DNA from: an uncultured Bacteroidales bacterium
GTDB lineage: Bacteria > Bacteroidota > Bacteroidia > Bacteroidales > VadinHA17
DNA: 64,000 nt
Assembly: GCA_963838215.1 (NCBI GenBank)
Contig: CAWIQG010000005.1
Location: forward strand, 83,310-147,309
Reading direction: 5' to 3'
Shown here: positions 27,720-59,150 of the stretch, piece after piece
How positions within the stretch are numbered: the stretch's first letter is position 1
Layout: every line of letters starts with the position of its first letter
The notes under the pieces: generated by a model
Told to the model about the DNA's origin: nothing
Databases searched by the model: none
The model's input: only the letters and a program-made list of their open reading frames with translations
Position numbers and translations under genes: made by a program

Positions 27720-27733
27720 AGAAAAGACAGAAA

Positions 27734-29283: not shown

Positions 29284-29294
29284 TTATTTTTGCG

Positions 29295-32001: not shown

Positions 32002-32005
32002 GGTT

Positions 32006-32233
32006 TTACTGTTTAATGAGGTTAGTATTCAATGAATCCAAATATTTTTTACCAAGGCTCCGTTCCATCACCAGCAAAGCAAAAATACGCAAAATTCTGT
32101 TAAACTTGTCAGGTTTCTTTATCAAGTTGGCTGAGGCTATGGAAGTACCCAGGGAAATGATAACTTTTGATAAATTGAAAAGTAAATCCTTCAAAAGACA
32201 TATTATTATTTCGGCAATTATTTTCATTTGCAT
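32006..32233 (-). CDS. Possible small protein (75 aa) between PP2C and kinase genes
   Basis: The ORF fills an otherwise anomalous 222-nt gap in a tightly packed gene train. It overlaps the PP2C stop by 10 nt and ends 4 nt before the kinase ATG. There is no motif, and an antisense ORF of similar length exists (32016..32255 +). Confidence 0.3.
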   Translation of the reverse strand: MQMKIIAEIIICLLKDLLFNLSKVIISLGTSIASANLIKKPDKFNRILRIFALLVMERSLGKKYLDSLNTNLIKQ

Positions 32234-33404
32234 AATTTTTCAGTGGGCGTATTAACTGTTAAAGCAATATTCTTCTTAGAAAATGCATGCCATTTAAAAT
32301 CAGAACTCAAAGGCGTTTTCTGAACTGAAATCACAAATGTACTGCTATCTCCAGAAGATGATTTGGCAACAACTGGAGAAACATTATACTCACTCTTCTG
32401 AAATATCAGAAACAAAACTGTACAGAGAATCAATATCACAATAAATATCATGGCTGGGAAAAAGAAATTTCTGATCTTCCTGATTTTGTTGATAGACCGG
32501 ACCTTTCCGAATGAAATACATAACGCTGATATATTGTCATTCGATCCCTTTTCAAATGCGTTATTAATCAGATTTTTAGCAAATGTTTCAGGATCAGGAC
32601 CATTTTGATAGATCTGAAAAAAATCCAGCTCATCTTTTTTAACTGATTTGTCTGTAATTAATCCGTCCGAACAAAGCAGGAATATTTTTGGAGTTCGCAA
32701 ACTAAGATAGTCCCGATGCTCCGGATAAATGTCAGGTTTATCATTTCCTCCACTTACTGATCGTGTAATAATATGAGAAAACTGATTAAAATAATCCGTA
32801 TTTATTTTCTCCCCTGGTTGTTCTTTAATACTTCTTCAATATATGAATGATCTTTTGTAATTTGTTCGACGCCGTGTGAATCAATTTTATATAACCTGCT
32901 GTCACCAATATTTCCCCACACGTAAGAACCATTATGAATTAACAAGACAACAAGTGTCGTGCCCATACCTAAATGATCTATGTCTTTTTCAACTTCTTCT
33001 CTTACAGCGACTTGTGTTTTCAGGAAACCTTCTTCAAGAACAGATTTAAGCTGCGTCGGAAGAATTTGTTCATGAAATGATTCTTTTACATGTGATAAGA
33101 AAGTATTGACAGCCAGTTGGCTGGCAATCTCTCCGTGTTCATACCCTCCCATTCCGTCGGCTACAATAAAAAGATAGGTTCTGTCATCTATCTTCTCACA
33201 AAGAAATGAATCTTCATTATTTGATCGACGTCCTGTAATTGACTCCCCGTAATAAGTAATATTTTCTTCCAATAATGTGCTTATTAATATTGAATTCGTT
33301 AACCTTCCATTAATGTTAATAATTTTTAAATATGGTCGCGTCCGTAAATAAGATCTCCAGGAGTATTGATCAATATTGTTTTTGAAGTTTGATTGAAAAC
33401 CCAC
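32224..33404 (-). pseudogene. PP2C-family Ser/Thr phosphatase with C-terminal TM segment, split by a one-base frameshift (pseudogene or sequencing indel)
   Basis: Track ORFs 32802..33404 and 32224..32700 are the two halves. The first carries GRRSNNEDSF, VADGMGGYEHGEIAS, GTT and GDSRLY. The second carries LLCSDGL, GSNDNISALCISF, then TM FFFPAMIFIVILILCTVLFLIF. The -1 frame reads through the junction as GEKINTDYFNQFSHIITRSVSGGNDKPDIYPEHRDYLSLRTPKIF. One extra G in the GGGG run (plus-strand CCCC ~32811-32814) restores a ~393-aa protein. Confidence 0.85.
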
Positions 33405-34855: not shown

Positions 34856-34857
34856 TC

Positions 34858-35676
34858 CTATTTAAGTTTTTTATGTAACAACTCCTTTAAATCCAGAATC
34901 TCATTTCCCTTAAAGTCAATCCATTTTCTTTCCTCATTTGTTCCAGTGGACCTGAAAATATTTTCCTCAAAGATTTCCCCATAGCTGCCATTATCTTTAA
35001 CCATCATTATTATCTGATCTGCAAATGCAAGCGAAAGATCAATATTATGAGACACAATTATTGAAGTTCTGTTCTTTTCCCCTAATGCCTTTTGTATTAC
35101 TCTCATTAGTTCAACAGAATTATTCTCGTCCAGATTACCAGTCGGTTCATCGCCGAAAAGGACAGAAAACTCAGGAGTTATTGCTCTTACAAATGCAAGT
35201 CTTTGTCGCTGACCACCAGACAATTCAGTCACATGGGCATCCCTTTTTATTTCCTGCAAACCTACCTGTTCCATAGCTTTCTCAACTTTCGATAACGCCT
35301 GTTCAATCTTTGCACCCTGAATCAGCTGGGGGATGCAGGCATTCTCATAGGCAGTGAAGTTATGCATGAGGTTTGTGTTCTGGAATATAAAACTCATGTG
35401 AGAGTTACGTACATCTGAAAGGAGCTTTTCTTCAGTCCACAAATCAGATAAATTATAATGCTTTTCTATTTGAGGCATGAATCTTATTTCTCCTTCAGCG
35501 ATTGTATTGTTCATTAATCCCAGGGTTTCAAGAATAGTGCTTTTACCGGCACCTGATTTTCCAATCATGACAACAAGCTGGCCGCCCATAATCACTAGAT
35601 GTTTAATCTTCAGTACCGGATTGATACCATCATACGAACAGACCACATTATTTAATTCATAAATAGCTTGGGGCAT
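34858..35676 (-). CDS. ABC ATPase of the MacB/LolD/FtsE type
   Basis: 272 aa. Walker A GKSGAGKST, signature LSGGQRQR, and Walker B with the family-typical GDEPTGNLD. Confidence 0.88.
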   Translation of the reverse strand: MPQAIYELNNVVCSYDGINPVLKIKHLVIMGGQLVVMIGKSGAGKSTILETLGLMNNTIAEGEIRFMPQIEKHYNLSDLWTEEKLLSDVRNSHMSFIFQNTNLMHNFTAYENACIPQLIQGAKIEQALSKVEKAMEQVGLQEIKRDAHVTELSGGQRQRLAFVRAITPEFSVLFGDEPTGNLDENNSVELMRVIQKALGEKNRTSIIVSHNIDLSLAFADQIIMMVKDNGSYGEIFEENIFRSTGTNEERKWIDFKGNEILDLKELLHKKLK

Positions 35677-35678
35677 AA

Positions 35679-37550
35679 TTATTTAAATTTATTATAAACT
35701 TCATACTTAATATTTGGATTCAGGGTATTCATCTTTCTGCAAAAGTTTTGAAGTTCTGATTCCCTGGATGTGTTGTTTGGATTGTTAAAATAGAGATAAA
35801 CCAAAATCTGGGTATTACTGGTTGCAAGCATCTGATTGACTCTTTCAATGAATTCCTTCAGGAAAAAAGACCTGCCTTCCAGTTCGGACCTATAAAAGTA
35901 ATCAGAAACATCAAAATGGATAGTAATCTTGTTTGTTACAACTTTGATTCCTCCCATAAGTTTGTTTTCCAGCCTGAGTTTATCATTAAACAGATCGGGA
36001 AGCAATGAACTGGAATTTCTCATCTGCCCGGTGATCTGCTCAAATCCTGTTTCTCCATTGGTTATTATCGGGTCAACCCCTGAACTATAGTAAATCATAT
36101 CGCCAACTTCGTTCGATTGATTTTCTGCCGTCCATACCTGTTTAAGATTCATATATAATCTTTTTATCTCAGCCTGAAGCTGATCATTACTTTTTTCTTC
36201 AAGAGGGGCGCTATGATCGATATAAAATACGCTATACTCTTTATAGGTATCACCTTTGATCGAAATTTTATTTGGTTTAAAGAGAGTTAATTTAGCTAGA
36301 ATATCCAAAGAGAGCATATTCTGAGGCAACCAATAATAACTGAGACCCGAAAAGAAATGAAATTTCTCCACCTCTTTTTCTGAAATCAGTTTTTCATAAT
36401 TATCCCCAAACGTTTTAAAATATGAATCAAAGTCAATATCCTTGATTTCACTAACAGGTGTCGTCTCCATACCTGAATACTCTGAAAAATCCAGACCAAG
36501 AGTATATCCCCATAATTCAGCAACATTCATCGATCTTATCTTCAGATTGTTTGTGTCGATATTCCGGCTTACAAAATATCCGAATAATTCAGATCTGAGT
36601 AATTCTTTTACAGGAGAGTCTTTTAATATCTTTGCAAAATCTTTAACCGCTGCAAACTGAATGTCATCCATAAAATTTGCTTTCAGAAACCTTGCATCTG
36701 CTAAATTCAGATATTGAGTATCCACTGCCAGAGCCAGTGGATTCAAAATTTTTGCTGTTCTCTGGTTATCATTTAAATAGAAAAAACCTAAATGGGCATT
36801 GTGCTTATAAATTTTCATTGCAGCTCTTGCAGTGTCATTAGCACTTGTTCTTCCCCTTTCTGAAAAAGTATAGAGCTTCTGTCCTTCTTCAACTTTCTTC
36901 CAATCAGGAACATACGCCCTGTTGCTGTATATGATGGTTATATCTGATAATTTCACCCAGAAAACATCATTCCTGGTCAGATTTTCATGAACAATATCGG
37001 TTACACTAAGCAGTAATGCATCAGTTTCCTGTTTTAAAACAAAATAAGCATCAAATACACTATCTGCAATTTGTTTATTTAACCCGGGCATATTTGACGG
37101 AAGATTTCTGTTATCCGGATTTTTCTTTATAAGAGCCCTAACAATTACCTTGTCAACACTGAGATTCCTCATTCCCAGAACCAGGTCCTGCTTTTTGACC
37201 CAACCTACTTCAATTGCACTTGCAGTAAATCTATAATTATTAGTTAGCAGTGCAGTTCCTCTTTTCTTAACAAGGCGGACTGCATCTTCAGTTTCATCCC
37301 ATACAGCAAAATACTGAAGAAATTTTTCAGTACCTTTCTGGTTCAGACACTCTTTGTCGCTGTAAACAGGTATATTGTCTTTTGCTGCCATAACATACCA
37401 CACATTTTCGCCTCTTTCATTTGACACAGAAGTGCTCATACCCGGATAAGGCGCTTCATACTTAAGAGGCATTTTTGGGAAAAAATCTCCTTCCTGACCA
37501 TACAAAAGTAATGGTAAAAGAATTCCCAATATTATAAGAATCTTTTTCAT
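35679..37550 (-). CDS. Exported protein, vWA-less paralogue of the two upstream vWA proteins
   Basis: Start taken at internal MKKILIILGILLPLLLYGQ (signal peptide). It shares the N-terminal module (P-M/L-x-Y-x-x-P, W-V...GWVKK...) and the internal SYYWLPQNML motif with 37561..39915 and 39927..42283. It has no DxTxS MIDAS motif and carries a unique ~185-aa C-terminal extension. Confidence 0.7.
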   Translation of the reverse strand: MKKILIILGILLPLLLYGQEGDFFPKMPLKYEAPYPGMSTSVSNERGENVWYVMAAKDNIPVYSDKECLNQKGTEKFLQYFAVWDETEDAVRLVKKRGTALLTNNYRFTASAIEVGWVKKQDLVLGMRNLSVDKVIVRALIKKNPDNRNLPSNMPGLNKQIADSVFDAYFVLKQETDALLLSVTDIVHENLTRNDVFWVKLSDITIIYSNRAYVPDWKKVEEGQKLYTFSERGRTSANDTARAAMKIYKHNAHLGFFYLNDNQRTAKILNPLALAVDTQYLNLADARFLKANFMDDIQFAAVKDFAKILKDSPVKELLRSELFGYFVSRNIDTNNLKIRSMNVAELWGYTLGLDFSEYSGMETTPVSEIKDIDFDSYFKTFGDNYEKLISEKEVEKFHFFSGLSYYWLPQNMLSLDILAKLTLFKPNKISIKGDTYKEYSVFYIDHSAPLEEKSNDQLQAEIKRLYMNLKQVWTAENQSNEVGDMIYYSSGVDPIITNGETGFEQITGQMRNSSSLLPDLFNDKLRLENKLMGGIKVVTNKITIHFDVSDYFYRSELEGRSFFLKEFIERVNQMLATSNTQILVYLYFNNPNNTSRESELQNFCRKMNTLNPNIKYEVYNKFK

Positions 37551-37560
37551 TGATATGATT

Positions 37561-39915
37561 TTAGGGTAAATAGCTTTGCGGTATCCAATACCAGGCTCTG
37601 TCATTTGAAAGAAAAAGGAATTCTTTGTTACCCGACAAGCGATTAAGGTCATCTCTCTTCTTTTTAATATTGTTAACTATATCATCAAATTCAGAATCTG
37701 ACACTACATTGAGATCACTCAAATCGTTCATCTTGTATTTCTGTAACAAAGGGTTCAATGATGGCAAGCCTGTTATTAATCCCATAAGTTCAGCCAGATT
37801 TTTATTAGCAATTTCATCCGGAGTGACCCCATAGTTGGCCCTGAGTATTTCCATCCAGCTCTCCCTTAACTTCTCTCTTCGTTTAGACTGTGTCTGATTC
37901 GGATCATAAATTTTATCAAGAGTTACCCTTAGATCATCGAACTCAGGTTGATCCAGAAACAAAACATAGTTATAAAGAGGGGTTACCATGCTGTCAATTC
38001 TTACAGGTGTATGGCCTCTAAGCATAAACTGATAATTCTTCTGCCTTATAATATTGATCTGGTCCACTGTAAAACCGGCTTTCATTAAAAGTTGAATGAC
38101 TTCCTGTGAAAATCCTGATTCCTTGCTTAAGTCTTCCGGAACAACATTCAGCAATTTTCTTAGCTCAGAAATCAGGCTGTCATTTCTGCTGTTAGTTAAA
38201 GTGATCATTCTTTTCACTAACTTCTGAGCCATATCTGCAGGGATTTGATGACCCTGGGTAACGTATTGCAATTCACCGTTTACAGGGCTATACTGAAGTG
38301 TAAAAAGGGTTTTGTTTTCCTTATCCTGTACCCAGCGAGGCCGGCTGTTGAGAGAGGTCAGATTAAGTGTTCCATATTTTTGTTTCAGGATTTCTGATAT
38401 TCCTTCAGCATTTTTCCTTCCCAGTTCATTTAGCTGTGTAATAAAATCCTCGTAGGATATATCCTTTTCATGATGCACCTGTATGCACAGAATGCCACAA
38501 CTGTATTTTTTAATTAAAGGAATTACATCTGATTCAGTAATGCGGCCTTCTCCTTCACGATCGCCTGAATCTCCTATCACTATAATAATATTAGTCTGTT
38601 GTTCAAATCCTCTTAAAACGTTGTCAACTTTTTTAAGCCCGAGATACATTCCTTCCGATGTAGTATTATCCCTGCATGCAGGCTCATCAGCGTCAACGGT
38701 AGCCATAAACCTCACAAATTGATTATAATCAGATAATTGATGAACTAAATAGCAACCATCATCTTCAGGTTTTTCATAATCGCGATATACCACAGCTCCA
38801 TATTTGAAACTATTTTCCGAATTCTGTACTGCAGCGGCGCTCTCCAACACAGCCTTACGTACCGATTCAAGATATGGGCCCATGGATTCGGTACCATCTA
38901 GAACAAAAACCAGATTAATATATCGTGATCTGGCTATCTGTTCGTTTAACATTCTCTGGATGTCAAGCATCTGGTCATTTTTTACATGCGTTCCATTTTC
39001 CTGAACCAGATCACTCACAACAGCCGTTTCAACTAAATTTCCTGCTTTTCTGAGAACAGGAAGGCGTTTCCAGTAAGGGCTATATCTGACGGTATAACGA
39101 TCATCGTTCCAAAAAGCAGATGATCCATCCCGTGTGGAAACAAATAGTTTTGCCTTTGTTGAATCGGTAAATAACGAACTTTTAATATTTAATTTAATCC
39201 GCTCTGCAGCAGCCTCCTTATCCCAGTTTGGTTCCAGTGCCTGACGCTGGTCCCAAACCTGCACACTCGATATATCCACCCAACCATTAACATAGTCGGC
39301 TAAGTTTCCGCGCGAGATATTATCCTTCTTACTGACCAGATACCTGTTACCTTCTTTCTTAAGAATGAAGAAGAATTCAAAAAGAGGAGTTTCTTTACTA
39401 TTCGGTGAGGCTGCAGCCGGAGAATCATAGAAAGCAAGCTTTTTTGCACCCTCCTTTATCCTTTCCATTTCGTGTTGCATCATCTCCGGGGTTGTAATGG
39501 TCATTACCTTAAGTCTGAAATTGGTTTTAGAACTATACAGTGTGCTTGGTGACAAGACACAGAAAGCTTTATCAACCCAGCCAAAATCATTTGGTTCCTG
39601 CATAAATTCTCCTACGCTTGCGCTGAAGGTTCCATCGTCACTTACAATATGAATCATTTTATCTTTCTCTTCCACAACCAGGAAACGATCCAAAAACTTC
39701 GGTGTTTTACCATTGCTTGTAGTTACACCTGCCCTGTCAATCCAGACGCTCCAATTCTGATTGCTGAGCGTGTTTGTACTATTAAGATCAGCAATCGACT
39801 CGAAGTTTGGTTTCAGATATTTAACCGGCATTCTGAGAGGTTGCTTCCCGGCAAATGGTTGCCCCGATAATGTGAATGGGCAGATTAGTAGTATTAAAAC
39901 GAATAGGTTTTTCAT
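37561..39915 (-). CDS. Exported von Willebrand factor A (vWA/MIDAS) domain protein with N-terminal SH3-like repeats and conserved C-terminal module
   Basis: 784 aa. Signal peptide MKNLFVLILLICPFTLSGQ. MIDAS-type LVFVLDGTESMGPY...IIIVIGDSGD. Ends in DRAWYWIPQSYLP. Confidence 0.8.
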   Translation of the reverse strand: MKNLFVLILLICPFTLSGQPFAGKQPLRMPVKYLKPNFESIADLNSTNTLSNQNWSVWIDRAGVTTSNGKTPKFLDRFLVVEEKDKMIHIVSDDGTFSASVGEFMQEPNDFGWVDKAFCVLSPSTLYSSKTNFRLKVMTITTPEMMQHEMERIKEGAKKLAFYDSPAAASPNSKETPLFEFFFILKKEGNRYLVSKKDNISRGNLADYVNGWVDISSVQVWDQRQALEPNWDKEAAAERIKLNIKSSLFTDSTKAKLFVSTRDGSSAFWNDDRYTVRYSPYWKRLPVLRKAGNLVETAVVSDLVQENGTHVKNDQMLDIQRMLNEQIARSRYINLVFVLDGTESMGPYLESVRKAVLESAAAVQNSENSFKYGAVVYRDYEKPEDDGCYLVHQLSDYNQFVRFMATVDADEPACRDNTTSEGMYLGLKKVDNVLRGFEQQTNIIIVIGDSGDREGEGRITESDVIPLIKKYSCGILCIQVHHEKDISYEDFITQLNELGRKNAEGISEILKQKYGTLNLTSLNSRPRWVQDKENKTLFTLQYSPVNGELQYVTQGHQIPADMAQKLVKRMITLTNSRNDSLISELRKLLNVVPEDLSKESGFSQEVIQLLMKAGFTVDQINIIRQKNYQFMLRGHTPVRIDSMVTPLYNYVLFLDQPEFDDLRVTLDKIYDPNQTQSKRREKLRESWMEILRANYGVTPDEIANKNLAELMGLITGLPSLNPLLQKYKMNDLSDLNVVSDSEFDDIVNNIKKKRDDLNRLSGNKEFLFLSNDRAWYWIPQSYLP

Positions 39916-39926
39916 ATTTAAATTTG

Positions 39927-42283
39927 TTAGGGCAAATAACTTTGAGGTATCCAGTAATATGCACGATCGTTAGACATAAAGTAAAATTGCTTATTCCCGG
40001 CAATTTTTGATAATAATTCACTTTTATCCTGAATGTCCTTTAATATCTGATCAAACTCCATATCAGGAAGCCTTGTAATGTCAAGGATATCTTTAAATGT
40101 ATATTTCTTAAGGATCGGGTTCGGTGAAGGGAGCCCTGATATCAGGTTCATTACATCAGAAAATGATTTATTTTGAATTTCTTCCCGGCTGACTCCATAG
40201 TTCGCCCTTAATACTTCAAACCATGCATCTTTAAAGCTTTGGCGACGCTGATAACCGGTAAGTCCCGGTGTATAAATTTTGGTAAGAGATATAATCAGAT
40301 CATTCAATTCTTCTGCGTCAAGAAAAATATCAAACTTATATATCGGGTTGGTAAGTTTTTGCACTTCAAATGATGTATACGTTTTCAGAAGAAACTGATA
40401 ATTCTTCTGAGTAAGGATAGAAATCTGTTCATTGGAATATCCTGCATCTTTCAAAAACAATTTCACTGCCGGGGAGAAAGAACCTATTTTTGTAGGGTCT
40501 ATTACAGTGATACTGTTTATAAGATTATCCACTGTCCTCAATAATGAGTCGGTCCTAATGTTCATGTCGTTGATCATTTTTTCAATGATCTTGCTTGTAG
40601 TGGCTTCTGTTAAGCTTTTTCCTAGAGAGACATACTGCAAACCTCCGGTCAATGGGCTGTTCTGAAGAGTATAAAAACCAATATCCTCATTGTTTTCATG
40701 CTTCCACCTTGGCCTTGCCGAGGCAGAAAGTACCTGCTGATTTCCAAATGCCTTTTCATTCTCTTCAGCAATTTGTATCGAAGTTCTAAGAATCATATCA
40801 GGTACCTCGATAACAAAATCTTCATAGGACTGGTTTTTAGGGTGATGAACCTGAATCGCAACCATATTGATCCTGTTTTTTACCAGGTTGGGATAACATC
40901 AGATTCTGTAACACGTTTTGGTCCTGGCCGATCCGCAGCATCACCTATCAGAATGATAATATTTGTTTCTTTTTCTTTACCACGGAAAAGGGCTCTGGCT
41001 TTATTTAATCCAAGGTATAATCCCTCTGAGACTGTGTTGTCAAAACATGCAGGATCATTTGTATTGCAGGCTCCGAGTTCAGCACAAAACCGATCAATAC
41101 TGTTACCCAGGGGTATTGTGTTATAGCATTTATCATTTGCAGGGTCATCATAGTCTCTGTAAACAATTGAACCGAACTGAAAACTGTTATCAGAATTATA
41201 TAATCTTGTTGCACTGTTTTTTACAGCATCCTGCACCGATTTGAAGTATGGTCCCATGCTTTCTGTACCATCAATCACAAACACAACATTAATGTTGCGT
41301 TTTTTTTCGTGAAGATCAGTTTGAAGGGACTGAAGCCCTCTATAGGATTCTTCAGTAATTTTCTTTCCCGATTCATTAACCAGATCACTGACAACTGCTG
41401 TTTCGATAAGGTTACCGGTCCGGTTGAAGACCGGGAGTCTTTTCCAGTTTGGACTAAATTTCTTTTCAAATGGATCATCCGCCCAGAAATTCCTTGTTGT
41501 ATCCCCGCTATTTCCATAGTTCAGGGCTTCTTCACTTGTTTCGAATAAAGCTGCCGGTGTTTTATTCTGTCTTCTCTCTTCACTCGAAACCTTATCCCAA
41601 TCAGGTTCAAGAACCTGACGCATCTCCCAGAGCTGTACCTTCGATTCATCAACCCACCCCATAAGATAATAACCAGCATTTCCTTTGGAAATATTATCCC
41701 TCCGACCTAATAATAAACGGTCACCTTCCTTTTTAAAGACGTAAAATATCTCAAAAAGAGGTAATTCGTTAATATTCTCATGCGTTGTAGTCGGATTAGA
41801 GAAAAAATTCATTTTTTTGCCTTCAGCTTTTATACGTTCAAGTTCGCCCTTCATTTGTGAAGGGGTTGTTATAGTCATTACCTTTATCCTGAAGTTGGTT
41901 TTATCGCTATACAAGGCAGTGGGCCATAATAACATATCAGACTTTGGCACCCATCCATAATCAGTTGGTTCACTAATAAATTCATCAGTTGCACTGTTGT
42001 AGCTTCCGTTCTCCATAACAATATGAATTCTGTCTGAAGCTTCCTCAACTACAAGAAAGCGGTCGGCAAAATTAAGTTGTTTGCCGTTCGAGGAAACTAT
42101 GCCCTCTCTGTCAGCCCATACAGCCCATATATTTCTTCCTGGTTTAGACTTTCCGATTTTTGTGGAGAGTTTTGGTTTTTCATAATCGGATGGAGATCTC
42201 ATTGGAGATTTTCCAACAAAGTTTTGAGAAGTTGCACACAGACTACCCGATAAAAATATGATCACAAGGAAAAGATTCTTCAT
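39927..42283 (-). pseudogene. Second exported vWA-domain paralogue, split by a one-base frameshift (pseudogene or sequencing indel)
   Basis: Track ORFs 40880..42334 (start better at MKNLFLVIIFLSG, 42283) and 39927..40865. The first ends ...TESDVIPTW* and the second begins MVAIQVHH. The intact paralogue reads ...TESDVIPLIKKYSCGILCIQVHH. The -1 frame reads NLVKNRINMVAIQVHH, so one extra C in the CCC run (plus-strand GGG ~40890-40892) restores an equal-length protein. MIDAS VVFVIDGTESMGPY is present. Confidence 0.85.
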
Positions 42284-42290
42284 TAATTCG

Positions 42291-43217
42291 TTAGTTGTTA
42301 ACAGTTTTCTTATCATAGGTGACCAATTGCACACTTGATATCTTTTTATTTGGATTAAGCTGAATTTTTACAGTTATACTCACTAACTCATAAGGATTAG
42401 ATTCAATCACTATTTTTCTTACAAAATCTTTAAACGATCCAGTTTCCTTACCTCCAATTGGTATCTCTCCATTGTTCAGGCAATAACTACAAACTTTTAT
42501 GCTAAGGTCCCTTTGTTCTTTTTCCTCAGTACCTGAAACAGTTTTATTAGCGAGAGATGTCAACCACTTGGAGAATTTATTATCATCTACCTGTTCGAGT
42601 ATTTTAATTGTTTTTGTATCAAATACTTTTCCTGAAGCCTTATCAATCAATTTTACCACGTATTGGCCAACCTCAGCAAAAGATACCTGACCAATTGTAC
42701 TTTCAGAGGTCGATTTACCTCCAAAATCCCAAACAACCGGATTAATAGCTTTGGTTGAATAACCTATTACATCGCCTGTATAGGCTATTACAGGCCAAAT
42801 AACAATAACAGGGCTTTTCTTTACAGTGTCTTTTTTGGCAGGCGCCTCTTTCCCGGCAACTATAGAATCGCGACGAACAATGGGCTCAGTTGAAGCCTCT
42901 ATAACAATTTTCAGATCCATTGAATCTGCTTGGTTCCCTTTTGCAGCTTTAATCATAGGATTGAATATGCCTTTCTTATTATAGATATGGATAGGATTTA
43001 ATTCTGTAGAATAGGAACCATCGCCAAAATCCCATGATATCTTGTCAAAATTTTTCGAAAGATTCTTAAACCGGACAGTATCTCCGACAGTGAATTGCCT
43101 TTTGTCTGGTGAAAAATCTGCTATGGGTTTTTCTTTTACTTTAGGCCTGCATGAGTTTAAACCAATGCCAAGCATACAAAGGATCAGAATGTGCAAAATT
43201 TTCTTAAAACTGTACAT
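42291..43217 (-). CDS. PKD-domain lipoprotein
   Basis: 308 aa. Lipobox LGIGLNSC. PKD signature VRFKNLS...WDFGDGSYS...HIY, and a second weaker PKD-like unit (WDFGGKSTS...GQYVVKL). Confidence 0.75.
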   Translation of the reverse strand: MYSFKKILHILILCMLGIGLNSCRPKVKEKPIADFSPDKRQFTVGDTVRFKNLSKNFDKISWDFGDGSYSTELNPIHIYNKKGIFNPMIKAAKGNQADSMDLKIVIEASTEPIVRRDSIVAGKEAPAKKDTVKKSPVIVIWPVIAYTGDVIGYSTKAINPVVWDFGGKSTSESTIGQVSFAEVGQYVVKLIDKASGKVFDTKTIKILEQVDDNKFSKWLTSLANKTVSGTEEKEQRDLSIKVCSYCLNNGEIPIGGKETGSFKDFVRKIVIESNPYELVSITVKIQLNPNKKISSVQLVTYDKKTVNN

Positions 43218-43228
43218 AATTTATAATT

Positions 43229-44665
43229 CTATAGTTTGAGATAATTAACATTTTTCTGGGTGTTACCCGTCCTTGATAATTTTTTAATCCCAATAGTAAT
43301 TCCGATTACTGAGAGGTTTATATTTCCCATTTCCGACATAATACTATTATAAACAGGACTCTTACTGGCGTCAGTTGTGTTTGGAGTTAATAGTGCTGAA
43401 CTCTTGACTTTTGAAGAAAAATTAAGAAAAGCCTGATTATAATTCACCCCTACATATAATTGATAGCTATTACGGAGTCTGAAAAACATTCCCAATTCAA
43501 TATTGCCGGATGCATTGATTGGGTTTATCGGAAGAGTACCTTTACCTGAATAAGTCTGATCATCATTGAAACCTAATGCAGGAATTTCCTGAAGTGTGAC
43601 ATTGTACTGAGGATAATATCCTAAACTTGAGTAATTGGTTTTAATGTTATAAGTTCCTTTATAATAAGATAATACTACCCCCGCATTCATATAGAATCCA
43701 TTGTTCTGACTAAACGATTTTTCATAATTTAACTTAACAGGGAAATTAAACCCGGTAATTGAAATATTTTCACTCAGAGCACTAAGGTTCATTATCTGAT
43801 AATATGTGTCTTTGTCCGCATCCGCTGTCTCTTCGGCACTTAAATACCCGACTGCAGAATAATTTGATGATAAATACGATATTCCCAAACCGACTGATCC
43901 TCCGATTTTATAAGTTTCAAAATTTTTGAAAAGATAACGTAGTTCACCCTCAATTCCAAATCCGGCTTTTGACTGCACTTTTTGTCCTGTGATTATACTT
44001 TCAGTCATCTGATTATTGAAACTGAAATTATCTAACCCGGCATTTAATGAAAGAATTTTTTCCCAGTGTGATATCTTTGTGAAAGGAGCCACATAGGTCC
44101 ACTTACTCTCTCCCGACTTAACTATTTCAGTAATAAGAGGATCGCAGGTAATAGTGTCATTAATTCTTAACCTGAGATCCTGGCAGGTTGAAGTTTCGTA
44201 CCTGGCGCCCGAGGAGTTTTTTGAATAAGCCTGTATCTCTTTTTTTATTCTTACAGAAACAACCAGACCTTTCTTATCAATTTTAATTCTGCCGTACAGA
44301 GTGCCGGCATCAGTCTCTGTAAGCCTGCAATACAAATTCATGTAATTATCGCTGATGTCTTTTACATAATCTGAAACCTTTTTTTGTTTTTCATTTATTG
44401 TTGTTTCATTATTGTTGATATAGTTCGGAGATATATCATCAAAAACTATAACGCTGTCGTTCAGGAAAAACTTAAGAAATTTATCTTTTTGATTTTCCGT
44501 TATTTTATTTCCTTCAGAGAGAGTGGAATAAAACTCATAGTGTCTTATCAGACTATCGATATTATGAAGGAGCAGAATTTGTTTTTCTCTTGATAATTTT
44601 ACAGTCTGACCAGGCAGCAAAACCCCGGAAACGGCTAACAAAAAACAAAATATAAGCTTTCTCAT
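43229..44665 (-). CDS. Exported hypothetical protein, C-terminal half beta-barrel-like
   Basis: 478 aa with signal peptide MRKLIFCFLLAVSGVLLPGQ. The C-terminal ~270 aa shows alternating hydrophobic/aromatic strands with G/S/N turns (GFGIEGELRYLF, GGSVGLGISYL, GFYMNAGVVLSYY, ELGMFFRL, LYVGVNYNQAF). The start lies 1 nt after the adhesin stop. Confidence 0.55.
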   Translation of the reverse strand: MRKLIFCFLLAVSGVLLPGQTVKLSREKQILLLHNIDSLIRHYEFYSTLSEGNKITENQKDKFLKFFLNDSVIVFDDISPNYINNNETTINEKQKKVSDYVKDISDNYMNLYCRLTETDAGTLYGRIKIDKKGLVVSVRIKKEIQAYSKNSSGARYETSTCQDLRLRINDTITCDPLITEIVKSGESKWTYVAPFTKISHWEKILSLNAGLDNFSFNNQMTESIITGQKVQSKAGFGIEGELRYLFKNFETYKIGGSVGLGISYLSSNYSAVGYLSAEETADADKDTYYQIMNLSALSENISITGFNFPVKLNYEKSFSQNNGFYMNAGVVLSYYKGTYNIKTNYSSLGYYPQYNVTLQEIPALGFNDDQTYSGKGTLPINPINASGNIELGMFFRLRNSYQLYVGVNYNQAFLNFSSKVKSSALLTPNTTDASKSPVYNSIMSEMGNINLSVIGITIGIKKLSRTGNTQKNVNYLKL

Positions 44666-44666
44666 C

Positions 44667-47600
44667 TTAATTGGAATTAACTATTATTTTCGCAATAGCT
44701 CTCATGTTACCCTGGATAATATCTATAAAGTATATCCCGGGTTTTAATTTCGTTCCCTGATTAATATCAGTACTTTGCACAGTCAATACGGTTCCCGATG
44801 TCATCTTTTGAACCGTGTTAGGATATGTCTTACCGAAATAATCTCGTACAAAGACCTGTATTGAGCTACTCGCTGTGAGACCATTTACTGTAACTGTGAA
44901 CTGGCCATTATTTGGATTTGGAGCCACTGTAACCGGGAGATTAAGCCCGGGGGAAACCGGAATGATTACTCCACCCTGTTCATAGTATACTTTTGTTGTA
45001 CACTCATTCTTATTGGTTGTTATAACCCAATATTTGGTCAAGTCTGACAGATCGGTCGGTATAAAATACTGTCCTGTTGCACCAGATATATTACCGGATG
45101 CGTCACCCCACTGATATTTTACGGAATCAGCATTTGTACAGATCAGAATATTATTCCCTTTCTTAAGAACAGCATCAGGTGGAGGCGATTTATCTACTGT
45201 TAGAACCGGTACATCCGACGACGTTATATCCGTTGTGACAGAATCACCCCGCAATACCTGATTATTGACGCTTACGAGGCTGTCTTCCAGAAATTTTGAT
45301 ACTATTTTGCAACTAAATTGATAACCATTGAATGTATTCAGTATACTGTCCAGAGACAAAATATTTGTATTTTCGCCATTATGTTTTAGAAACGGGGGGT
45401 TTGTTATATCTTTCCAGTCATCTGTCGTATTTTCACGATATTGCCATTCATATTTTTGAAATACCCCTGTTGAGCTGACAGAAAATCCGATATTGCTATA
45501 TTCACAGGACTCCTTGGAGGTGGGTTGTGAGGTAATTTCAATTTTCGGATAAACAATAAGGATACCTGTTGTATAGCTGATACTATAATTGTTATCTACT
45601 GGAGCAACAGGAAAATCAATCCAATAATCAGGTGCAGGAGGAATTATCGGAGGGCTCGAGGCAGTACAATTTGTTGTCAGATTTAAAGAAAAATCAAGAG
45701 TATTAATGTCACCAGGAAATTTAAGATCTGAAGTGACAACGTAAGCTTCCATATCAGGTAATTCGTCTCCCTGAAATTTATTAATGTTATGAATGGATAA
45801 CCTGAGGTTTGCCTTTGTAACAGTGAAGGTTCCATTATTATAATTAATGTCATAGTTCGAGGCTAAAAACCCACCTGTACCAGTTGCCATTGATGGGGTC
45901 ACAACAAAGGCAGTTCCGGCATCAGTAGCAGCTGAAAGACCTGCCGCATCAGGGGTAAGGGTTACACTTGTTACCAATTCACCAGGTACTTCTTCGCTAT
46001 TTGTCGTGAAATACGTCGTATTGGTTCCGGCTGTTAAAGCTGTCCCGTATTCTTTGGTTGGCCCAGTGGCAATGATCGTTAATGGTTTCTTTGCTACTAC
46101 ATCCTCGTAAGGTAAATAAGTGACAGCATAGTTGCTTTCAAGAAAGCCTCCGGTACCGGTTACCATTGATGGAGTAACAACATAGGCTGTTCCCGCTGGA
46201 GCTGTAGCTGAAAGACCTGCCGCATCAGGGGTTAGTGTAACGCTGGTTACTATCTCACCTGATATTTCTCCGCTGTGCGTAAAATTCGTTGTACTGGTTC
46301 CTGCCGTTAAGGCTGTACCATAAGTCTTTGCCGGTCCTGTGGCAGTTATAGTCAGATCTTTGGGGATAATATCAGCAGTTGTTGTTGATACACTTGCCAG
46401 GTAGTAGTCTGCAGCATCTGCACCGGAAAGGGAAGCTCCTGTTAAAGTGACAGTTTTTGTGGTTCCCACATCTTTGGTGTCGAACGTTGATGTTCCCCCC
46501 GCAAGTGTTACATCATCCGGTGAAATGACACCGTCGAGAGAACGCGAAAGTTCAATTGTGCCGGTGTTACCATCATATATCTTATTGTCAACGATAAAGC
46601 TCCCGGTGATAGACAATGGGGTAATGTCAGCCGTAGTTGCTGATACACTTGCCAGGTAGTAGTCTGCTGCATCTGCACCGGAAAGAGAGGCTCCTGTTAA
46701 AGTGACAGTTTTTGAGGTTCCCACATCTTTGGTGTCGAACGTTGATGTTCCCCCGGTAAGTGTTACATCATCCGGTGAAATGACACCGTCGAGAGAACGC
46801 GAAAGTTCACTTGTACCGGTGTTACCATCATATATCTTATTTTCAACGGTAAAGCTCCCGGTGATAGACAATGTGGTAATGTCAGCAGTTGTTGTTGGCG
46901 CACTTGCCAGATAGTAGTCTGTTGCATCTGCCCCGGAAAGAGATCCAGTTAAAGTGACAGTTTTTGAGGTTCCCACATCTTTTGTGTCGAACGTTGCTGT
47001 TACTCCGGTAAGTGTTACATCATCCGGTGAAATGACGCCGTCGAGAAAATACGAATGTACAATCGCGCTGGTGTTACCATCATATATCTTATTGTCAACG
47101 GTAACGCTTCCGGTGATAGACAATGGGATAATGTCAGCAGTTGTTGCTGATACACTTGCCAGGTAGTAGTCTGCTGCATCTGCACCGGAAAGGGAGGCTC
47201 CTATTAAAGTGACAGTTTTTGAGGTTCCCACATCTTTTGTGTCGAACGTTGATGTTCCACCGGTAAGTGTTACATCATCCGGTGAAATGACACCGTCGAG
47301 AGAACGCGAAAGTTCACTTGTACCGGTGTTACCATCATATATCTTATTTTCAACGGTAAAGCTCCCGGTGATAGATAATGTGGTAATGTCAGCAGTTGTT
47401 TCTGATACACTTGCCAGGGAGTAGTTTGCTGCATCTGCCCCGGAAAGGGAAGCTCCTGTTAAAGTTACGGTTTTTGAGGTCCCCACATCTTTTGTGTCGA
47501 ACGTTGATGTTCCACCGGTAAGTGTTACATCATCCGGTGAAATGACGCCGTCGAGAAAATACGAATGTACAATCGCGCTGGTGTTACCATCATATATCTT

Positions 47601-55204: not shown

Positions 55205-57067
55205 TCAGATTTTTACGCCAATAACCAGTATATCGTCTGTTTGTGGTTGGTTAATATCAGTACTCTTTCTCCAGTATTCTATTGTCTGATTTAGTTTTTC
55301 ACATTGATCAAACAGGGATAATTCCTGGATTTCTTTAAGCAGGGCACAAAACCGGTAAGATTTAAATGTTTTCCCGTTTTCACCAAACTGGGCAACAAAT
55401 CCATCTGAGAAAATATAAAATGAATCTCCTTTTAAAAGAGGAATTTCTACAGTTTTGATCATCTTTTTTGCCTGATAGTAACTCAAACTACTGGAAATCC
55501 CTTTGATCTCGTTCATTTCACCTTTAGAAAAATAATAAAGAGGCCTTCCAAACCCTGAAAAACGTAGAATATTATTTTCAGTGTCAAGAGTACATACAGT
55601 AAAATCCATACCGAATTTATCGCAGTTGGAATGCTTGTCATATCTTAAAAAATCCCTGATCCTTGAAATTGTAAAATTCAGAATTTTAGATGGATCTGTT
55701 ATCTTTCTTGTTCTGACAGCCAGATCAAGACAATAATAACAAACTGATGACAGGATTGCTGCTGAAATACTATGACCTGTGCAATCGGCAACAGAGAGAA
55801 CAACATTATTATTTATTTCCGAAATATAATAGAAATCGCCCGATACAATATCTTTTGGTTTATTTAAAATGAAACTGTCGGGAAGGATTTCTTTAAAATC
55901 CAGAATTGAAGGCAAAAAATGGTTTTGCAATGCTTTACCATTGGTAAAAGCACCTTTTAAGTCTTCGATTGACAATTCAACCCTTTTTATGTCATATCCC
56001 AATTTTTGAATTATACTATCCGGCAAATTTGATTTCAGAAGACTTATTGATGTCTTTAATACGCTGATGCTACCCCAGTTTTTTTTCACATAAGAGATTT
56101 TCTCTGATACTTCCGGTGAAACTGGTACTGCAGCAAAACCAATATCTTTCAAAAGAGATGGTATCAGCTTTACTAAAATTCTATCCTTTTCTCTTTCTTC
56201 TTCCGGAAGGTTATCGAATGGAATAAGACAGTTGTGAAGCTTCTTGCTGTTATCTCTTTCTTTAGCATAAGTCCAACCCGACAATCTCCGTTCCCAGCAC
56301 CAACGATCATGCTCAATTCTTGCCATTGTCTCTATCTCATGTTTTGTCAGATCCAACAGAGGTATCTCAATATCTTTTTCGAATTTATACTGAATTTTAT
56401 ATCCTATCGAAAGCAATTTTGTAGGAATATGATAGGCGTTATCAATATTGGATAGCTTAATATCTTCACTGAGATCGTCGAATTTCGAAGCATTATTCAA
56501 CGCATTCGTTGATTTTCCAAATTTTGAATGAATAACCCGGGCAAGTTTTTCTGCAATTTCAATATTAATAAACTCTGCTTCAGACTCACGAATAATTTCA
56601 AAACCTGCATTCTTAAATATAATTGGAATAATATAGATAAACTCGCAGTACATAATCTTATCTTCCTGCGATAATTGTATAAATGGTGCAAAATCGTGAT
56701 ATTTTTCAACAAGAAGTTCATTATCCTGATATAATTCAACCACTTCCTCCAACCACTTATTATGAATAATTTCAGCCATTTCATAAACTTCGGCCTCGGT
56801 AATTATACAGGAGCGACAGTGTTTTGTAAACCGTTGAATTTTAATATTACTATGATCTAATATTAATGGAATCAATCGCGGAAAATTTTGTAAGGTCAAA
56901 GAATTTTCACTGACAAGTGACAGCTTTTTGACTTTATTCCTGATTCCTGATAACTCTTTTCTGAAAAGTTCTATAATGGACAAAGAAATTATTTTAACTT
57001 CATCATTGGTGATTTTAGAATTTGAAAAGAGTGATGCCGGGATGTTGAATTGTAATACACTTTCCAT
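55205..57067 (-). CDS. RyR-domain repeat protein fused to SpoIIE/PPM-type phosphatase domain
   Basis: 620 aa. The central region has a strong RyR-domain match (MARIEHDRWCWERRLSGWTYAKERDNSKKLHNCLIPFDNLPEEEREKDR) and two weaker upstream copies (AEIIHNKWLEE...LSQEDK; LARVIHSKF...LSEDIK). The C-terminal SpoIIE-like domain reads LQNHFLPS, SGDFYY, VADCTGHSISAA, FSDGF and DDILVIGV. Confidence 0.75.
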   Translation of the reverse strand: MESVLQFNIPASLFSNSKITNDEVKIISLSIIELFRKELSGIRNKVKKLSLVSENSLTLQNFPRLIPLILDHSNIKIQRFTKHCRSCIITEAEVYEMAEIIHNKWLEEVVELYQDNELLVEKYHDFAPFIQLSQEDKIMYCEFIYIIPIIFKNAGFEIIRESEAEFINIEIAEKLARVIHSKFGKSTNALNNASKFDDLSEDIKLSNIDNAYHIPTKLLSIGYKIQYKFEKDIEIPLLDLTKHEIETMARIEHDRWCWERRLSGWTYAKERDNSKKLHNCLIPFDNLPEEEREKDRILVKLIPSLLKDIGFAAVPVSPEVSEKISYVKKNWGSISVLKTSISLLKSNLPDSIIQKLGYDIKRVELSIEDLKGAFTNGKALQNHFLPSILDFKEILPDSFILNKPKDIVSGDFYYISEINNNVVLSVADCTGHSISAAILSSVCYYCLDLAVRTRKITDPSKILNFTISRIRDFLRYDKHSNCDKFGMDFTVCTLDTENNILRFSGFGRPLYYFSKGEMNEIKGISSSLSYYQAKKMIKTVEIPLLKGDSFYIFSDGFVAQFGENGKTFKSYRFCALLKEIQELSLFDQCEKLNQTIEYWRKSTDINQPQTDDILVIGVKI

Positions 57068-57144: not shown

Positions 57145-58578
57145 TTATACCAACCTTAATCCTAATACAAGTATATCATCTACCTGTTCGCGCTTCCCTT
57201 TCCAATCGAGGTGAACTTTACTGATAATTTCCTTTTGCACCTGCACAGGTTTATCCCAAATCTCCAGAAGCATTCCGCGATACTTCTTCGATAAAAACTT
57301 ATGTCCATGTTCTCCTCCAACCTGATCAGAATAACCATCAGTTGAAAGGTATAGCATATCTCCTCTTTTATATTCTAATCTTGTTTTCGAGAACGGAAAG
57401 GATTCTGTTGAATATCCAACCAAAAAGTTATCTGACCCGATGGATAAGATTTCACAATCTTCTTTAATATCAATCTGTACATTCCTTTCAAAATTAGTGT
57501 TGCTTTCCGGGTGAGTGGAAGGTTGTCTGAAGATATACATTGGAGGTGTAAAGGATCCGGAATACTCTATGATCTTATCATCAGGATTTATCGAAATTAC
57601 CATTATGTCAATATAGACTTTTGTAACAGCCAGCTCCTTTAGATCAAGTAATTCAATTAATTCCTTTCTCAGGTTTTCAAGGATACAGGCGGTATCAGTA
57701 ATTGATTTCCCTATAATAATATTATTGAGCAGTGGAATAGCCATAGCTGTCACAAAGGCACCCGGAACACCGTATCCGGGACAATCTGCAACAGCAATAA
57801 TGATCTTTGAGTCTTTTTTGCCGACCCAGTAAAAATCTCCGCTTACCAGATTTCGTGGCTCAGAAAAAATAAAATAGTTCTCTTTATTGAGAATCTCGTC
57901 TAACCTTTCTTTGGATGGAAGCAGTGCATCCTGAATCTTCTTCGAATAGGATATACTGGAAATCATGTCTTTATTTAATACTTCCACTGACACTTTATTT
58001 TCAATGACATTATTGAGGGTCTCGACAAACTCTATCCTGACCTTTTTATAAACCGATGGTTTAAGCATCTTTGAAGTTCTTTCCAGTTCGTCGAATTTTT
58101 GCATTATTTCACGACTCTCACCGGAACTTAATTTCTTCAGATACTTGCTATCATTAAATTGAATATTATTATCCTTACATAAATTCCGGATTTTATCCCA
58201 AAACTCAGGGTCCTCTAATTTAAAGAATTGGACTGAAATAAGATACGTTGGTAATTTTATTAATGTTTCTGTTATTATAAATCGCTGCGGATTTTCCTTC
58301 AAATTAAAAAATCTGTTGTGTTCTTCTTTAATCCACTTTGATTCAAGGTATTCCTTTTTAGTTCCAATGATAAAAAGTATTTTTGCCTCTTCTAAAGCTC
58401 TATCTATGCTATCAGAATAATTTGACTCCTTAACATCTTTGTCACTAAAAAAAGTTCTGACACCATAATTCTCAAGAAACTCTTTTAAGTCTTTGGCTAT
58501 TTGGGCATCTCGTGTAGGCTGATCATTTTCTTTTGCTTTAAAAGATATGAATACGTCGTATTTCTCAGAGGTTTCCAT
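57145..58578 (-). CDS. TIR-domain protein fused to SpoIIE/PPM-type phosphatase domain
   Basis: 477 aa. N-terminal TIR pattern YDVFISFKAKEND...GVRTFFSDKD...AKILFIIGTKKEYLESKWIKEE (SxW...E glutamate present). The C-terminal SpoIIE-like domain reads IQDALLPS, SGDFYW, VADCPGYGVPGA, STDGYSDQ and DDILVLGL. Confidence 0.78.
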   Translation of the reverse strand: METSEKYDVFISFKAKENDQPTRDAQIAKDLKEFLENYGVRTFFSDKDVKESNYSDSIDRALEEAKILFIIGTKKEYLESKWIKEEHNRFFNLKENPQRFIITETLIKLPTYLISVQFFKLEDPEFWDKIRNLCKDNNIQFNDSKYLKKLSSGESREIMQKFDELERTSKMLKPSVYKKVRIEFVETLNNVIENKVSVEVLNKDMISSISYSKKIQDALLPSKERLDEILNKENYFIFSEPRNLVSGDFYWVGKKDSKIIIAVADCPGYGVPGAFVTAMAIPLLNNIIIGKSITDTACILENLRKELIELLDLKELAVTKVYIDIMVISINPDDKIIEYSGSFTPPMYIFRQPSTHPESNTNFERNVQIDIKEDCEILSIGSDNFLVGYSTESFPFSKTRLEYKRGDMLYLSTDGYSDQVGGEHGHKFLSKKYRGMLLEIWDKPVQVQKEIISKVHLDWKGKREQVDDILVLGLRLV

Positions 58579-59094: not shown

Positions 59095-59128
59095 TAAAAA
59101 AGAGGCTGTCTCAACTGAAACAACCTCT
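59095..59128 (-). terminator. Rho-independent terminator downstream of the FadL-like gene
   Basis: The minus strand reads AGAGGUUGU-(10-nt loop)-ACAGCCUCU, a 9-bp stem with one G-U pair, followed by UUUUUU. It begins ~22 nt after the stop at 59151. Confidence 0.7.
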
Positions 59129-59150
59129 TTCAGAGGAAGTCATCAAAGTA

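Follow-up and report, generated by a model that had tools for sequence, protein, structure and literature searches.

A TIR–SpoIIE Fusion and Its RyR–SpoIIE Neighbour in an Uncultured Bacteroidales Bacterium Look Like an Undescribed Pair of Signal Maker and Signal Reader

Known TIR Systems and the Bacteroidales Locus

Bacteria, plants and animals alike have TIR enzymes that turn NAD+ into signalling nucleotides, and these enzymes are central to their immunity. To our knowledge, all bacterial receptors for TIR signals described so far lead to cell death or growth arrest. This article deals with two adjacent genes from an uncultured Bacteroidales bacterium of the VadinHA17 lineage (GenBank assembly GCA_963838215.1, contig CAWIQG010000005.1, positions 83,310 to 147,309), found in a stretch of 64,000 nucleotides that is called the window here and whose own numbering is used below. 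One gene, TIR-SpoIIE (57145..58578, minus strand), encodes a TIR domain fused to a SpoIIE/PPM phosphatase domain, and the next, RyR-SpoIIE (55205..57067, minus strand), encodes RyR repeats joined to a second PPM domain. The two look like an undescribed pair of signal maker and signal reader that feeds into protein phosphorylation.

The pair shares with Thoeris (types I–XI, bioRxiv 10.64898/2025.12.03.692087) a TIR gene with a catalytic-type Glu that adjoins a gene for a domain shown elsewhere to bind TIR-made isomers of cyclic ADP-ribose (cADPR). The domains on the TIR side vary here (TPR, Sel1, STAND-WD40 and PPM), much as the sensors vary in ThsB. Besides the window, four independent contexts have a TIR or TIR-like gene next to a RyR gene; the ligand residues are conserved, and binding is suggested by the phage homologues. 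In contrast to Thoeris, the candidate receptor domain is RyR (PF02026) and not SLOG, Macro or others, and the output is a PPM Ser/Thr phosphatase, there being no nuclease, SIR2, transmembrane or protease effector in the pair. The TIR protein here also carries a PPM domain without its usual histidine, and the locus lies outside a defence island. Because the effector type and the genomic context differ, the pair does not qualify as a member of Thoeris.

In TIR-STING, TIR-SAVED/Cap and TIR-pAgo, TIR is likewise fused to a second signalling domain, and a weak PADLOC match to SAVED_TIR was obtained for the window. However, TIR serves in those systems as an NAD-depleting output under a domain that senses nucleotides or nucleic acids, whereas TIR is joined here to a phosphatase, and the nucleotide-binding role belongs to a domain of the neighbouring protein. 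The SiaA/SiaB/SiaC system and the RsbU-type phosphatases (PMC7647112; 6k4e, 6kko) resemble the pair on the output side, with SiaA-PP2C as the best sequence and structure match of both PPM domains, the same succession of N-terminal sensor, helical linker and PPM domain, and a distant RyR-SpoIIE located beside a SiaB-SiaC fusion. They differ in that the sensor here is an enzyme (TIR) or a nucleotide-binding RyR domain, in that the GHG histidine is lost from the TIR-fused copy, and in that no SiaB, SiaC, STAS, RsbW/RsbV-type partner-switch or anti-sigma genes occur in the 64-kb window.

RyDEP and RyR Tad (PMC13232231; bioRxiv 10.64898/2026.06.04.730250) belong to the same Pfam family as the RyR repeats and have the same residues, H / W(+3) / H(+25) / K(+41) / D(+42). 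These anti-Thoeris proteins of phages, a glycosidase and sponges, are small and either break down host signals or tie them up, whereas the protein here is a 620-aa (amino acid) chromosomal product in which a repeated RyR region is joined to a phosphatase and a host TIR protein is the partner. The literature found to link PF02026 to TIR signals consists only of these two 2026 preprints, both on phages. Neither the text nor the four supplements of a survey of 29 types of TIR system mention RyR, SpoIIE or a phosphatase, and the TIR/RyR-phosphatase pairing is absent from two large comparative-genomics surveys of NAD/ADP-ribose (ADPR) and conflict systems. The literature searched likewise yielded no TIR-SpoIIE fusion and no TIR/RyR-phosphatase pairing, with one paper that contains both "TIR domain" and "SpoIIE" left out of account.

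The TIR-SpoIIE Protein

The interval 57145..58578 is a single open reading frame (ORF) on the minus strand, which starts with ATG and encodes 477 aa; the plus-strand translation of the same interval has stops throughout. In the protein, a long helical linker joins an N-terminal TIR_2 domain to a SpoIIE/PPM domain of SiaA-like type. An initial annotation made from the letters of the sequence had called the TIR and phosphatase domains, and the profile searches it had proposed as a check bear out both: Pfam places TIR_2 (PF13676) at aa 9–122 (E 9e-11, 42.8 bits against a gathering cut-off of 28) and SpoIIE (PF07228) at aa 256–476 (E 1.6e-12, 48.2 bits against a gathering cut-off of 25), in agreement with the AlphaFold2 model and, for the PPM domain, with Foldseek. 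The motifs that it quoted were all located in the protein, namely DVFISF at aa 8–13, FFSDKD at 43–48, ESKWIKEE at 79–86 and ADCPGYG at 264–270. The TIR-phosphatase fusion is real.

The TIR domain (aa 1–137; 58168..58578) has its strands at aa 9–12 (bA), 42–44 (bB), 67–71 (bC), 98–103 (bD) and 117–120 (bE), and aa 9–136 are modelled as a five-strand alpha/beta flavodoxin-like fold with a predicted local distance difference test score (pLDDT) of about 90. In a search against PDB sequences, the plant TIR NADases L6, ROQ1 and RUN1 align with the N-terminus, and in phmmer alignments with PDB chains 7vu8 and 3ozi, E86 (codon 58321..58323) falls over the catalytic Glu of flax L6 ("SKWCLMEL"). This putative catalytic residue lies four residues past W82, the conserved Trp of helix alpha-C (W82-x3-E86); among the 149 nearest TIR representatives, 147 have Glu at the equivalent position, and both W82 and E86 are invariant across the 9 TIR-SpoIIE orthologs. 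Among the orthologs the TIR domain is the most conserved part, with 81–87% identity as compared with 61–71% in the linker and 59–73% in the PPM domain.

The model as a whole has a pLDDT of 89.5, with two long helices (143–219) between the TIR and PPM domains. The linker is assigned to aa 143–230 (57889..58152), its helices to aa 143–169 and 174–219, and the PPM domain to aa 231–477 (57148..57888). The top 50 Foldseek matches are PPM structures throughout, with full-length RssB (REC-PP2C) among the matches and no TIR structural neighbour among those listed. The best of them is SiaA-PP2C (6k4e; TM 0.91, E 3.9e-21), which the C-terminus also matches at the sequence level (E 2.5e-24) in an alignment that starts at aa 200.

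The metal-site aspartates of the PPM domain (D248, D265, D414, D418, D467 and D468) are kept and conserved, as are G268 and G270, in the motifs GDF, xD-xx-G-x-G, TDG and DD. The DxxGHG loop reads D265-C-P-G-Y269-G270 (57769..57786), so that the change from GHG to GYG pointed out in the initial annotation is indeed there (Y269). The loop position is His in 105 of 105 other SpoIIE relatives and in 119 of 119 RyR-SpoIIE proteins (224/224 together), while it is Y, S, T or V in 9 of 9 TIR-SpoIIE proteins, the divergent P0125 included, a variability that suggests relaxed constraint at the site. We liken this His to His62 of human PP2C-alpha, a general acid, and by that analogy catalysis in the TIR-fused domain is predicted to be reduced or altered. 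Rather than a full-speed phosphatase, the domain is more likely to be a regulatory module that is weakened or binds phosphoproteins; it is probably regulatory and might bind a phosphoprotein or dock to another PPM domain. A rough neighbour-joining tree puts it among the ordinary SpoIIE phosphatases of Bacteroidota (about 44% identity) and the RyR-SpoIIE PPM domains in a separate clade, while that of P0125 is very divergent, at no more than 31% identity to anything.

The architecture is rare, and the remark in the initial annotation that no characterised TIR-SpoIIE protein is known holds for the literature searched. Among 5.8 billion clustered proteins, the full architecture is common only to P0001–P0009, which are at least 68% identical and all of metagenomic origin. 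An exhaustive HMMER search of the representative library with the TIR domain alone gave 4408 relatives at E <= 1e-3, four of them below E 1e-30, and added one divergent TIR-SpoIIE protein, P0125, whose TIR domain is 41% identical. A word-index homolog search with TIR plus linker alone returned a single protein. Pattern scans with ortholog-derived peptides found no orthologs in 185,579 GTDB species genomes or in JGI metagenome contigs, where only unrelated TIR proteins were recovered, and one locus considered as a further example (L011) was rejected, its SpoIIE protein having a 7TMR-DISM region and no TIR domain. Most of the nearest TIR relatives have repeats of the Sel1, TPR or LRR type, which makes SpoIIE an unusual companion domain in this TIR clade. 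No SpoIIE genes were found beside the unrelated TIR loci, and none of the TIR relatives is a single-protein TIR-RyR fusion. The closest TIR relatives outside the SpoIIE fusions, P0122 and P0123 (51–52% identity, about 400 aa), have a TIR domain, a hydrophobic segment of transmembrane type as judged by eye, and a C-terminal region that matches no Pfam family.

The RyR-SpoIIE Partner

The gene that lies 77 bp downstream of TIR-SpoIIE had been passed over in the initial annotation as far as its RyR domain is concerned, and that domain is the best clue to function. Its 620-aa product matches RyR (PF02026) at E 5e-16 (59.1 bits against a cut-off of 27.4) and SpoIIE at E 8.5e-15, and its AlphaFold2 model has a pLDDT of 87.1 and a predicted template-modelling score of 0.82. 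The RyR repeat region spans aa 165–310 (56138..56575), within which aa 242–301 (56165–56344) form a canonical PF02026 repeat, and the PPM domain (55208..55885) has its canonical His intact in the loop DCTGHS, with Ser as the last position in the window copy. Foldseek matches the PPM domain to SiaA-PP2C (6k4e) and the RyR region to 6uhi, a chimera of Bacteroides thetaiotaomicron and human RyR, and to 9ls7, the Repeat12 of human RyR3 bound to AMP-PCP. At the sequence level, the repeat matches Repeat12 of the animal ryanodine receptors RyR1–3 at E about 1e-16, as well as B. thetaiotaomicron RyR structures.

Five residues of the canonical repeat are of the ligand-binding type. H253, W256, H278, K294 and D295 are spaced 0, +3, +25, +41 and +42, a spacing identical to that of the phage RyR proteins. 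H253, W256 and K294 are invariant in 81 family members, and H278 and D295 are conserved in at least 90%. In RyR Tad the ligand residues are H129/W132, K147/H154 and K170/D171, and the protein binds 3'cADPR at 43 nM, plus 2'cADPR and cADPR (bioRxiv 10.64898/2026.06.04.730250). The equivalent residues of RyDEP are H75/W78/H100/D117, and of eight tested RyDEP homologues six bound signals, two being characterised as nanomolar sponges (PMC13232231). Phage RyR domains thus employ this same set of residues to bind 3'cADPR, 2'cADPR and cADPR with nanomolar to micromolar affinity, or to hydrolyse them (PMC13232231; bioRxiv 10.64898/2026.06.04.730250).

The RyR-SpoIIE family comprises 941 proteins at E <= 0.001, and the best 120 of the 941 all have both domains; those with a named source come mostly from Bacteroidales metagenome-assembled genomes (MAGs). 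A scan of viral contigs with the RyR-SpoIIE alignment gave PPM-domain matches only.

The arrangement of the two genes is compact. A strong terminator-like hairpin with a 15-bp stem and a T run (59098..59131, minus strand) closes the gene upstream of TIR-SpoIIE, and a 572-bp spacer lies 5' of TIR-SpoIIE itself, so this gene is taken as the start of a transcription unit. No terminator-like site was found between TIR-SpoIIE and RyR-SpoIIE, and the two are probably, to judge from the sequence, one transcription unit.

Recurrent Pairing of RyR Proteins with NADase Genes

The survey of neighbouring genes suggested in the initial annotation showed that the RyR-SpoIIE neighbour recurs. Seven RyR-SpoIIE loci were inspected, of which six are informative, L052 being interrupted by a contig end. 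In 5 of the 6 contexts a gene for a TIR or TIR-like NADase directly adjoins RyR-SpoIIE, in both gene orders and with four different NADase architectures. In the window clade TIR-SpoIIE comes before RyR-SpoIIE, and in the divergent pair L010 (TIR 41% identical to that of the window) the order is RyR-SpoIIE, then TIR-SpoIIE after a gap of 18 bp. RyR-SpoIIE is followed by a 369-aa TIR-TPR protein after 62 bp in L047 (Bacteroidales MAG CP070687.1), by a 678-aa TIR-TPR protein after 27 bp in L048/L049, and by a 1368-aa DUF4062-STAND-WD40 protein after 18 bp in L053. The TIR domains of the TIR-TPR proteins in L047 and L048 are 23–26% identical to the window TIR and keep the Glu at W+4. TIR genes are estimated to make up a tiny fraction of bacterial genes and, given this scarcity, the adjacency is far beyond chance, in a sample of small size whose members partly share descent. 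Three 2026 preprints describe DUF4062 as an NADase of TIR-like type.

The sixth context, L050/L051, has no TIR gene, and a fusion of a SiaB-like DUF6272 domain with SiaC lies upstream of RyR-SpoIIE. In L050 (Bacteroidales MAG JALHSP010000026.1) the fusion gene (4529–5434) encodes 301 aa, in which a SiaB-like kinase (6kko_A) is joined to a SiaC substrate domain (6kko_C), and it is directly upstream of a RyR-SpoIIE 38% identical to that of the window. This arrangement suggests a RyR-controlled partner switch of the SiaABC type.

The link between RyR and NADases extends beyond the RyR-SpoIIE family. When a hidden Markov model (HMM) of the RyR region was run over all retrieved loci, RyR ORFs turned up in 3 of about 35 loci that had been picked solely by TIR peptide patterns (L012, L039 and L028). 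L012 (Oscillospiraceae MAG WRAB01000006.1, 9992–12079) has a gene for a 590-aa TIR_2+Sel1 protein, followed 4 bp on by one for a 105-aa standalone RyR protein (Pfam E 3e-35) with the H/W/H/D ligand residues, a minimal host-encoded TIR+RyR pair in a Firmicute. In L039 (295–4453) the TIR gene (2127–3014) lies between two genes whose products have C-terminal RyR-like regions, seen with the custom HMM only; in one of these (295–2139), two transmembrane helices at the N-terminus accompany a Rossmann/RCK-like segment, and a RyR membrane protein beside TIR is reminiscent of the animal idea of cADPR and RyR channels. In L028 (Brocadiaceae MAG, 16515–19553) a 1013-aa protein combines an N-terminal RelA_SpoT nucleotidyltransferase, a GG-rich segment that looks SLOG-like by eye and a C-terminal RyR domain, and its gene is 6 kb away from the TIR gene.

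Plasmids provide further cases. An Arcobacter plasmid (L059, CP146529.1, 3712–7435) has an operon whose products are an NAD-binding protein, a RyR protein of 166 aa and a DUF4062 protein of 728 aa; the operon adjoins a type I restriction enzyme and recombinases and looks like a defence-island version of the same theme. On a Priestia aryabhattai plasmid (L063, NZ_CP128553.1, 590–8799), an adenylate/guanylate cyclase gene is immediately followed by the gene for a 94-aa RyR protein, in a cluster that also has a gene of the Pycsar-effector family, and a divergent gene for a 743-aa TIR protein lies 1.4 kb from the RyR gene. On a Methylobacterium plasmid the genes for a RyR protein of 910 aa and a SIR2 protein of 2082 aa are close together. 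Five other annotated plasmids with RyR genes are phage-like, which agrees with an anti-defence role of small RyR proteins.

Genomic Surroundings

Downstream of the pair, the genes on the same strand are, in order, those for a 3389-aa adhesin, two small proteins, three TssR-like VWA proteins, an ABC ATPase, an FtsX-like protein, a PP2C phosphatase and a Hanks-type kinase. The initial annotation had placed TIR-SpoIIE directly upstream of a kinase/PP2C-containing cluster; RyR-SpoIIE comes next instead, and the kinase and PP2C genes are about 24–27 kb on, but the linkage itself is seen in the related loci L007, L008 and L009 (72–77% identical). In these, TIR-SpoIIE comes directly after the kinase gene with a gap of 18–72 bp (18 bp in L007). 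In L009 the kinase and TIR-SpoIIE genes are followed by the start of RyR-SpoIIE, and in L007 the FtsX/ABC/TssR-VWA set is also upstream of TIR-SpoIIE. As the kinase gene is directly upstream in all three, the linkage has survived rearrangement, and it amounts to no more than moderate evidence for a tie with phospho-signalling.

All genes in this cluster lie on the minus strand. The kinase gene (30034..32001) encodes a Hanks-type Ser/Thr kinase fused to an FGE-sulfatase-like domain, and the PP2C gene (32485..33275) is frameshifted in the assembly: tblastn with the intact 294–305-aa orthologs from L007 and L008 changes from frame -3 to frame -2 near 32830, from either a pseudogene or an assembly indel. 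The FtsX-like, ABC ATPase and three TssR-like VWA genes occupy 33326..42334. One VWA paralogue (37561–39915, 784 aa) is intact, and a frame change near 40890 breaks another (39930–42283) into two ORFs, of 484 and 312 aa. The adhesin gene (44667–54836), which lies between the TIR/RyR pair and this cluster, encodes near-identical MBG_2/YDG repeats and a C-terminus of the type IX secretion system (Por_Secre_tail), and its guanine-plus-cytosine (GC) content is about 45% as against about 35% in the flanks.

On the other side of the pair, a beta-barrel-like 498-aa protein with a weak UPF0164 match (59151–60647) is preceded by two adjacent minus-strand genes (60865–62157 and 62341–63294) for signal-peptide proteins of Tyr/Gly/Ser/Asn/Arg low complexity that match no Pfam family. 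The remaining genes of the window are housekeeping genes (RelA/SpoT, PurA, Fur, Icd, citrate lyase and Lar) and cell-envelope genes, and Rfam found nothing in the window. A defence-island location was rejected on account of these neighbours, so that an anti-phage role is not established. PADLOC called no system in the window and gave weak single-domain matches only (SAVED_TIR, E 1.5e-5). Some related loci do lie near defence or mobile genes, namely L048, near AbiEii and a resolvase, and those on the Arcobacter and Priestia plasmids. Recent horizontal acquisition was rejected, the GC content of 34% being that of the flanks. Membership in the Bacteroidota type VI secretion system (T6SS-iii) was also rejected: Pfam found TssR-like VWA paralogues only, with no core genes (sheath, Hcp, VgrG, baseplate) and no other T6SS family, in scans that took in the ORFs of 120 aa or more in 1..45000, two overlapping ones and the adhesin excepted, as well as the larger ORFs further on.

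A Model for the Pair and Its Alternatives

The initial annotation had pictured a TIR activity placed under phospho-signalling control. The conserved pairing of TIR and RyR-phosphatase argues at least as strongly for an NAD-derived signal that controls a phosphatase as for the reverse. The account favoured here is a two-gene, Thoeris-like pair in which a generator of an NAD-derived signal works with a receptor whose output is a PPM phosphatase and not cell killing; the balance of probability, as we judge it from the sequences, tips slightly towards it. The account starts from domains, residues, conservation and gene linkage, which were seen directly, and every biochemical step in it is inferred.

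According to this scheme, the helical linker and the PPM domain would hold TIR as a dimer or oligomer, and TIR would cleave NAD+ by means of E86 to release a nucleotide derived from ADP-ribose, either ADPR or one of the cADPR isomers. In the neighbouring protein, the RyR repeats would bind this nucleotide through H253, W256, H278, K294 and D295, perhaps with slow hydrolysis. Binding would be passed along the helical linker of the partner to its SiaA-like PPM domain and alter phosphatase activity. The phosphatase would act on a phosphoprotein from a partner kinase, for which the linked cell-envelope cluster of Hanks kinase, PP2C, TssR-VWA and ABC genes is the candidate here and the SiaB-SiaC partner-switch fusion is the candidate in a distant relative. 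The His-less PPM domain, finally, may gate TIR or may dock the TIR protein to the partner phosphatase or its substrate.

Several observations weigh against this scheme. The contexts inspected are few for a family of 941 proteins, and L050/L051 have no TIR gene within a flank of 5.5–10 kb. The linkage to the kinase is confined to one clade (at least 70% identity) in which it may reflect synteny passed on by descent, L047, L048 and L053 do not show it, and the window has no gene for a phosphoprotein substrate of the STAS, SiaC or FHA kind. A conserved RyDEP catalytic dyad is no predictor of hydrolysis (PMC13232231), so the residues fit a receptor or a degrader either way, and RyR Repeat12 also holds an ATP analogue (9ls7), which leaves room for a less specific ligand, an adenine nucleotide in general. 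Between the two TIR-SpoIIE lineages the PPM domains share 28% identity and are not obviously sister groups, and therefore the fusion may have arisen twice or may evolve fast.

The pieces of the pair can also be read in other ways. TIR might be an NAD+-depleting effector of abortive infection, as in TIR-STING, TIR-SAVED and TIR-pAgo, with the PPM domain as its sensor or switch, RyR-SpoIIE as a regulator or an independent protein, and no diffusible signal. The catalytic-type Glu and the weak SAVED_TIR match would suit such an effector, as would the position of L048 near AbiEii and a resolvase, and DUF4062, found as a partner of RyR-SpoIIE, is reported to hydrolyse NAD+ with plain ADPR as the product. 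The effector is nevertheless an improbable answer, since it leaves unexplained why RyR recurs next to four NADase architectures, and since the window is no defence island, has no called system and has the same GC content at the gene as in its flanks; the nearest TIR relatives, moreover, with their Sel1/TPR/LRR sensor repeats, are like signal-generating proteins of the ThsB type. About equally unlikely is a partner that removes the TIR product, a RyDEP-like glycosidase or sponge acting as an off-switch or as an insulator against self-activation, with the true receptor elsewhere. H253 and D295, the equivalents of the RyDEP dyad (PMC13232231), are conserved, and small standalone RyR proteins with no output domain do lie beside TIR/DUF4062 genes in L012 and on the Arcobacter plasmid. 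Against this, in each of more than 100 family members a long helix joins RyR to a PPM domain with intact GHG, which is the layout of sensor, linker and phosphatase, and most of the phage homologues that have the dyad lack hydrolysis (PMC13232231). As a chromosomal protein with a phosphatase domain and a host TIR partner, RyR-SpoIIE is more likely to be the native reader of the signal than a sponge of the phage type.

Less probable again is an inert TIR, a non-enzymatic interaction or oligomerisation module that occupies a variable N-terminal sensor slot of an ordinary partner-switch phosphatase. Its PPM domain does group with ordinary Bacteroidota SpoIIE phosphatases whose N-terminal sensors are diverse (REC, TPR, HAMP and 7TMR-DISM in paralogues), TIR and REC are both flavodoxin-like, and the REC-PP2C protein RssB is a full-length Foldseek match. 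An inert module would not, however, be expected to have an invariant E86 and W82 in the most conserved region of the protein; it is the phosphatase part that has instead lost a catalytic-site His invariant in the family, and the pairing with RyR would be left unexplained. Each of these alternatives covers less of the conserved pairing and residue pattern than does a signal generator paired with a phosphatase-linked receptor.

What the Pair May Mean

A broader proposal, to be taken as tentative and on present evidence rather doubtful, is that host RyR domains are native receptors for the ADP-ribose nucleotides made by TIR, and that Bacteroidales have a second-messenger axis which, through PPM phosphatases, sets the Ser/Thr phosphorylation of envelope or partner-switch targets and is not a suicide switch. 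If the pairing is true, TIR biology would acquire an additional receptor domain and, with phospho-signalling, a novel output that is not lethal, and the probable host targets that phage RyR sponges and glycosidases mimic would have been identified. The His-less PPM domain on TIR would be a natural case of a phosphatase fold turned into the regulator of an NADase. The pair would also offer a tractable bacterial model for the sensing of the cADPR family by RyR domains of the Repeat12 type, which is debated for the animal ryanodine receptors. Should host RyR prove to be the native receptor, the link between cADPR and RyR, long debated for animal calcium channels, would be an ancient bacterial signalling pair.

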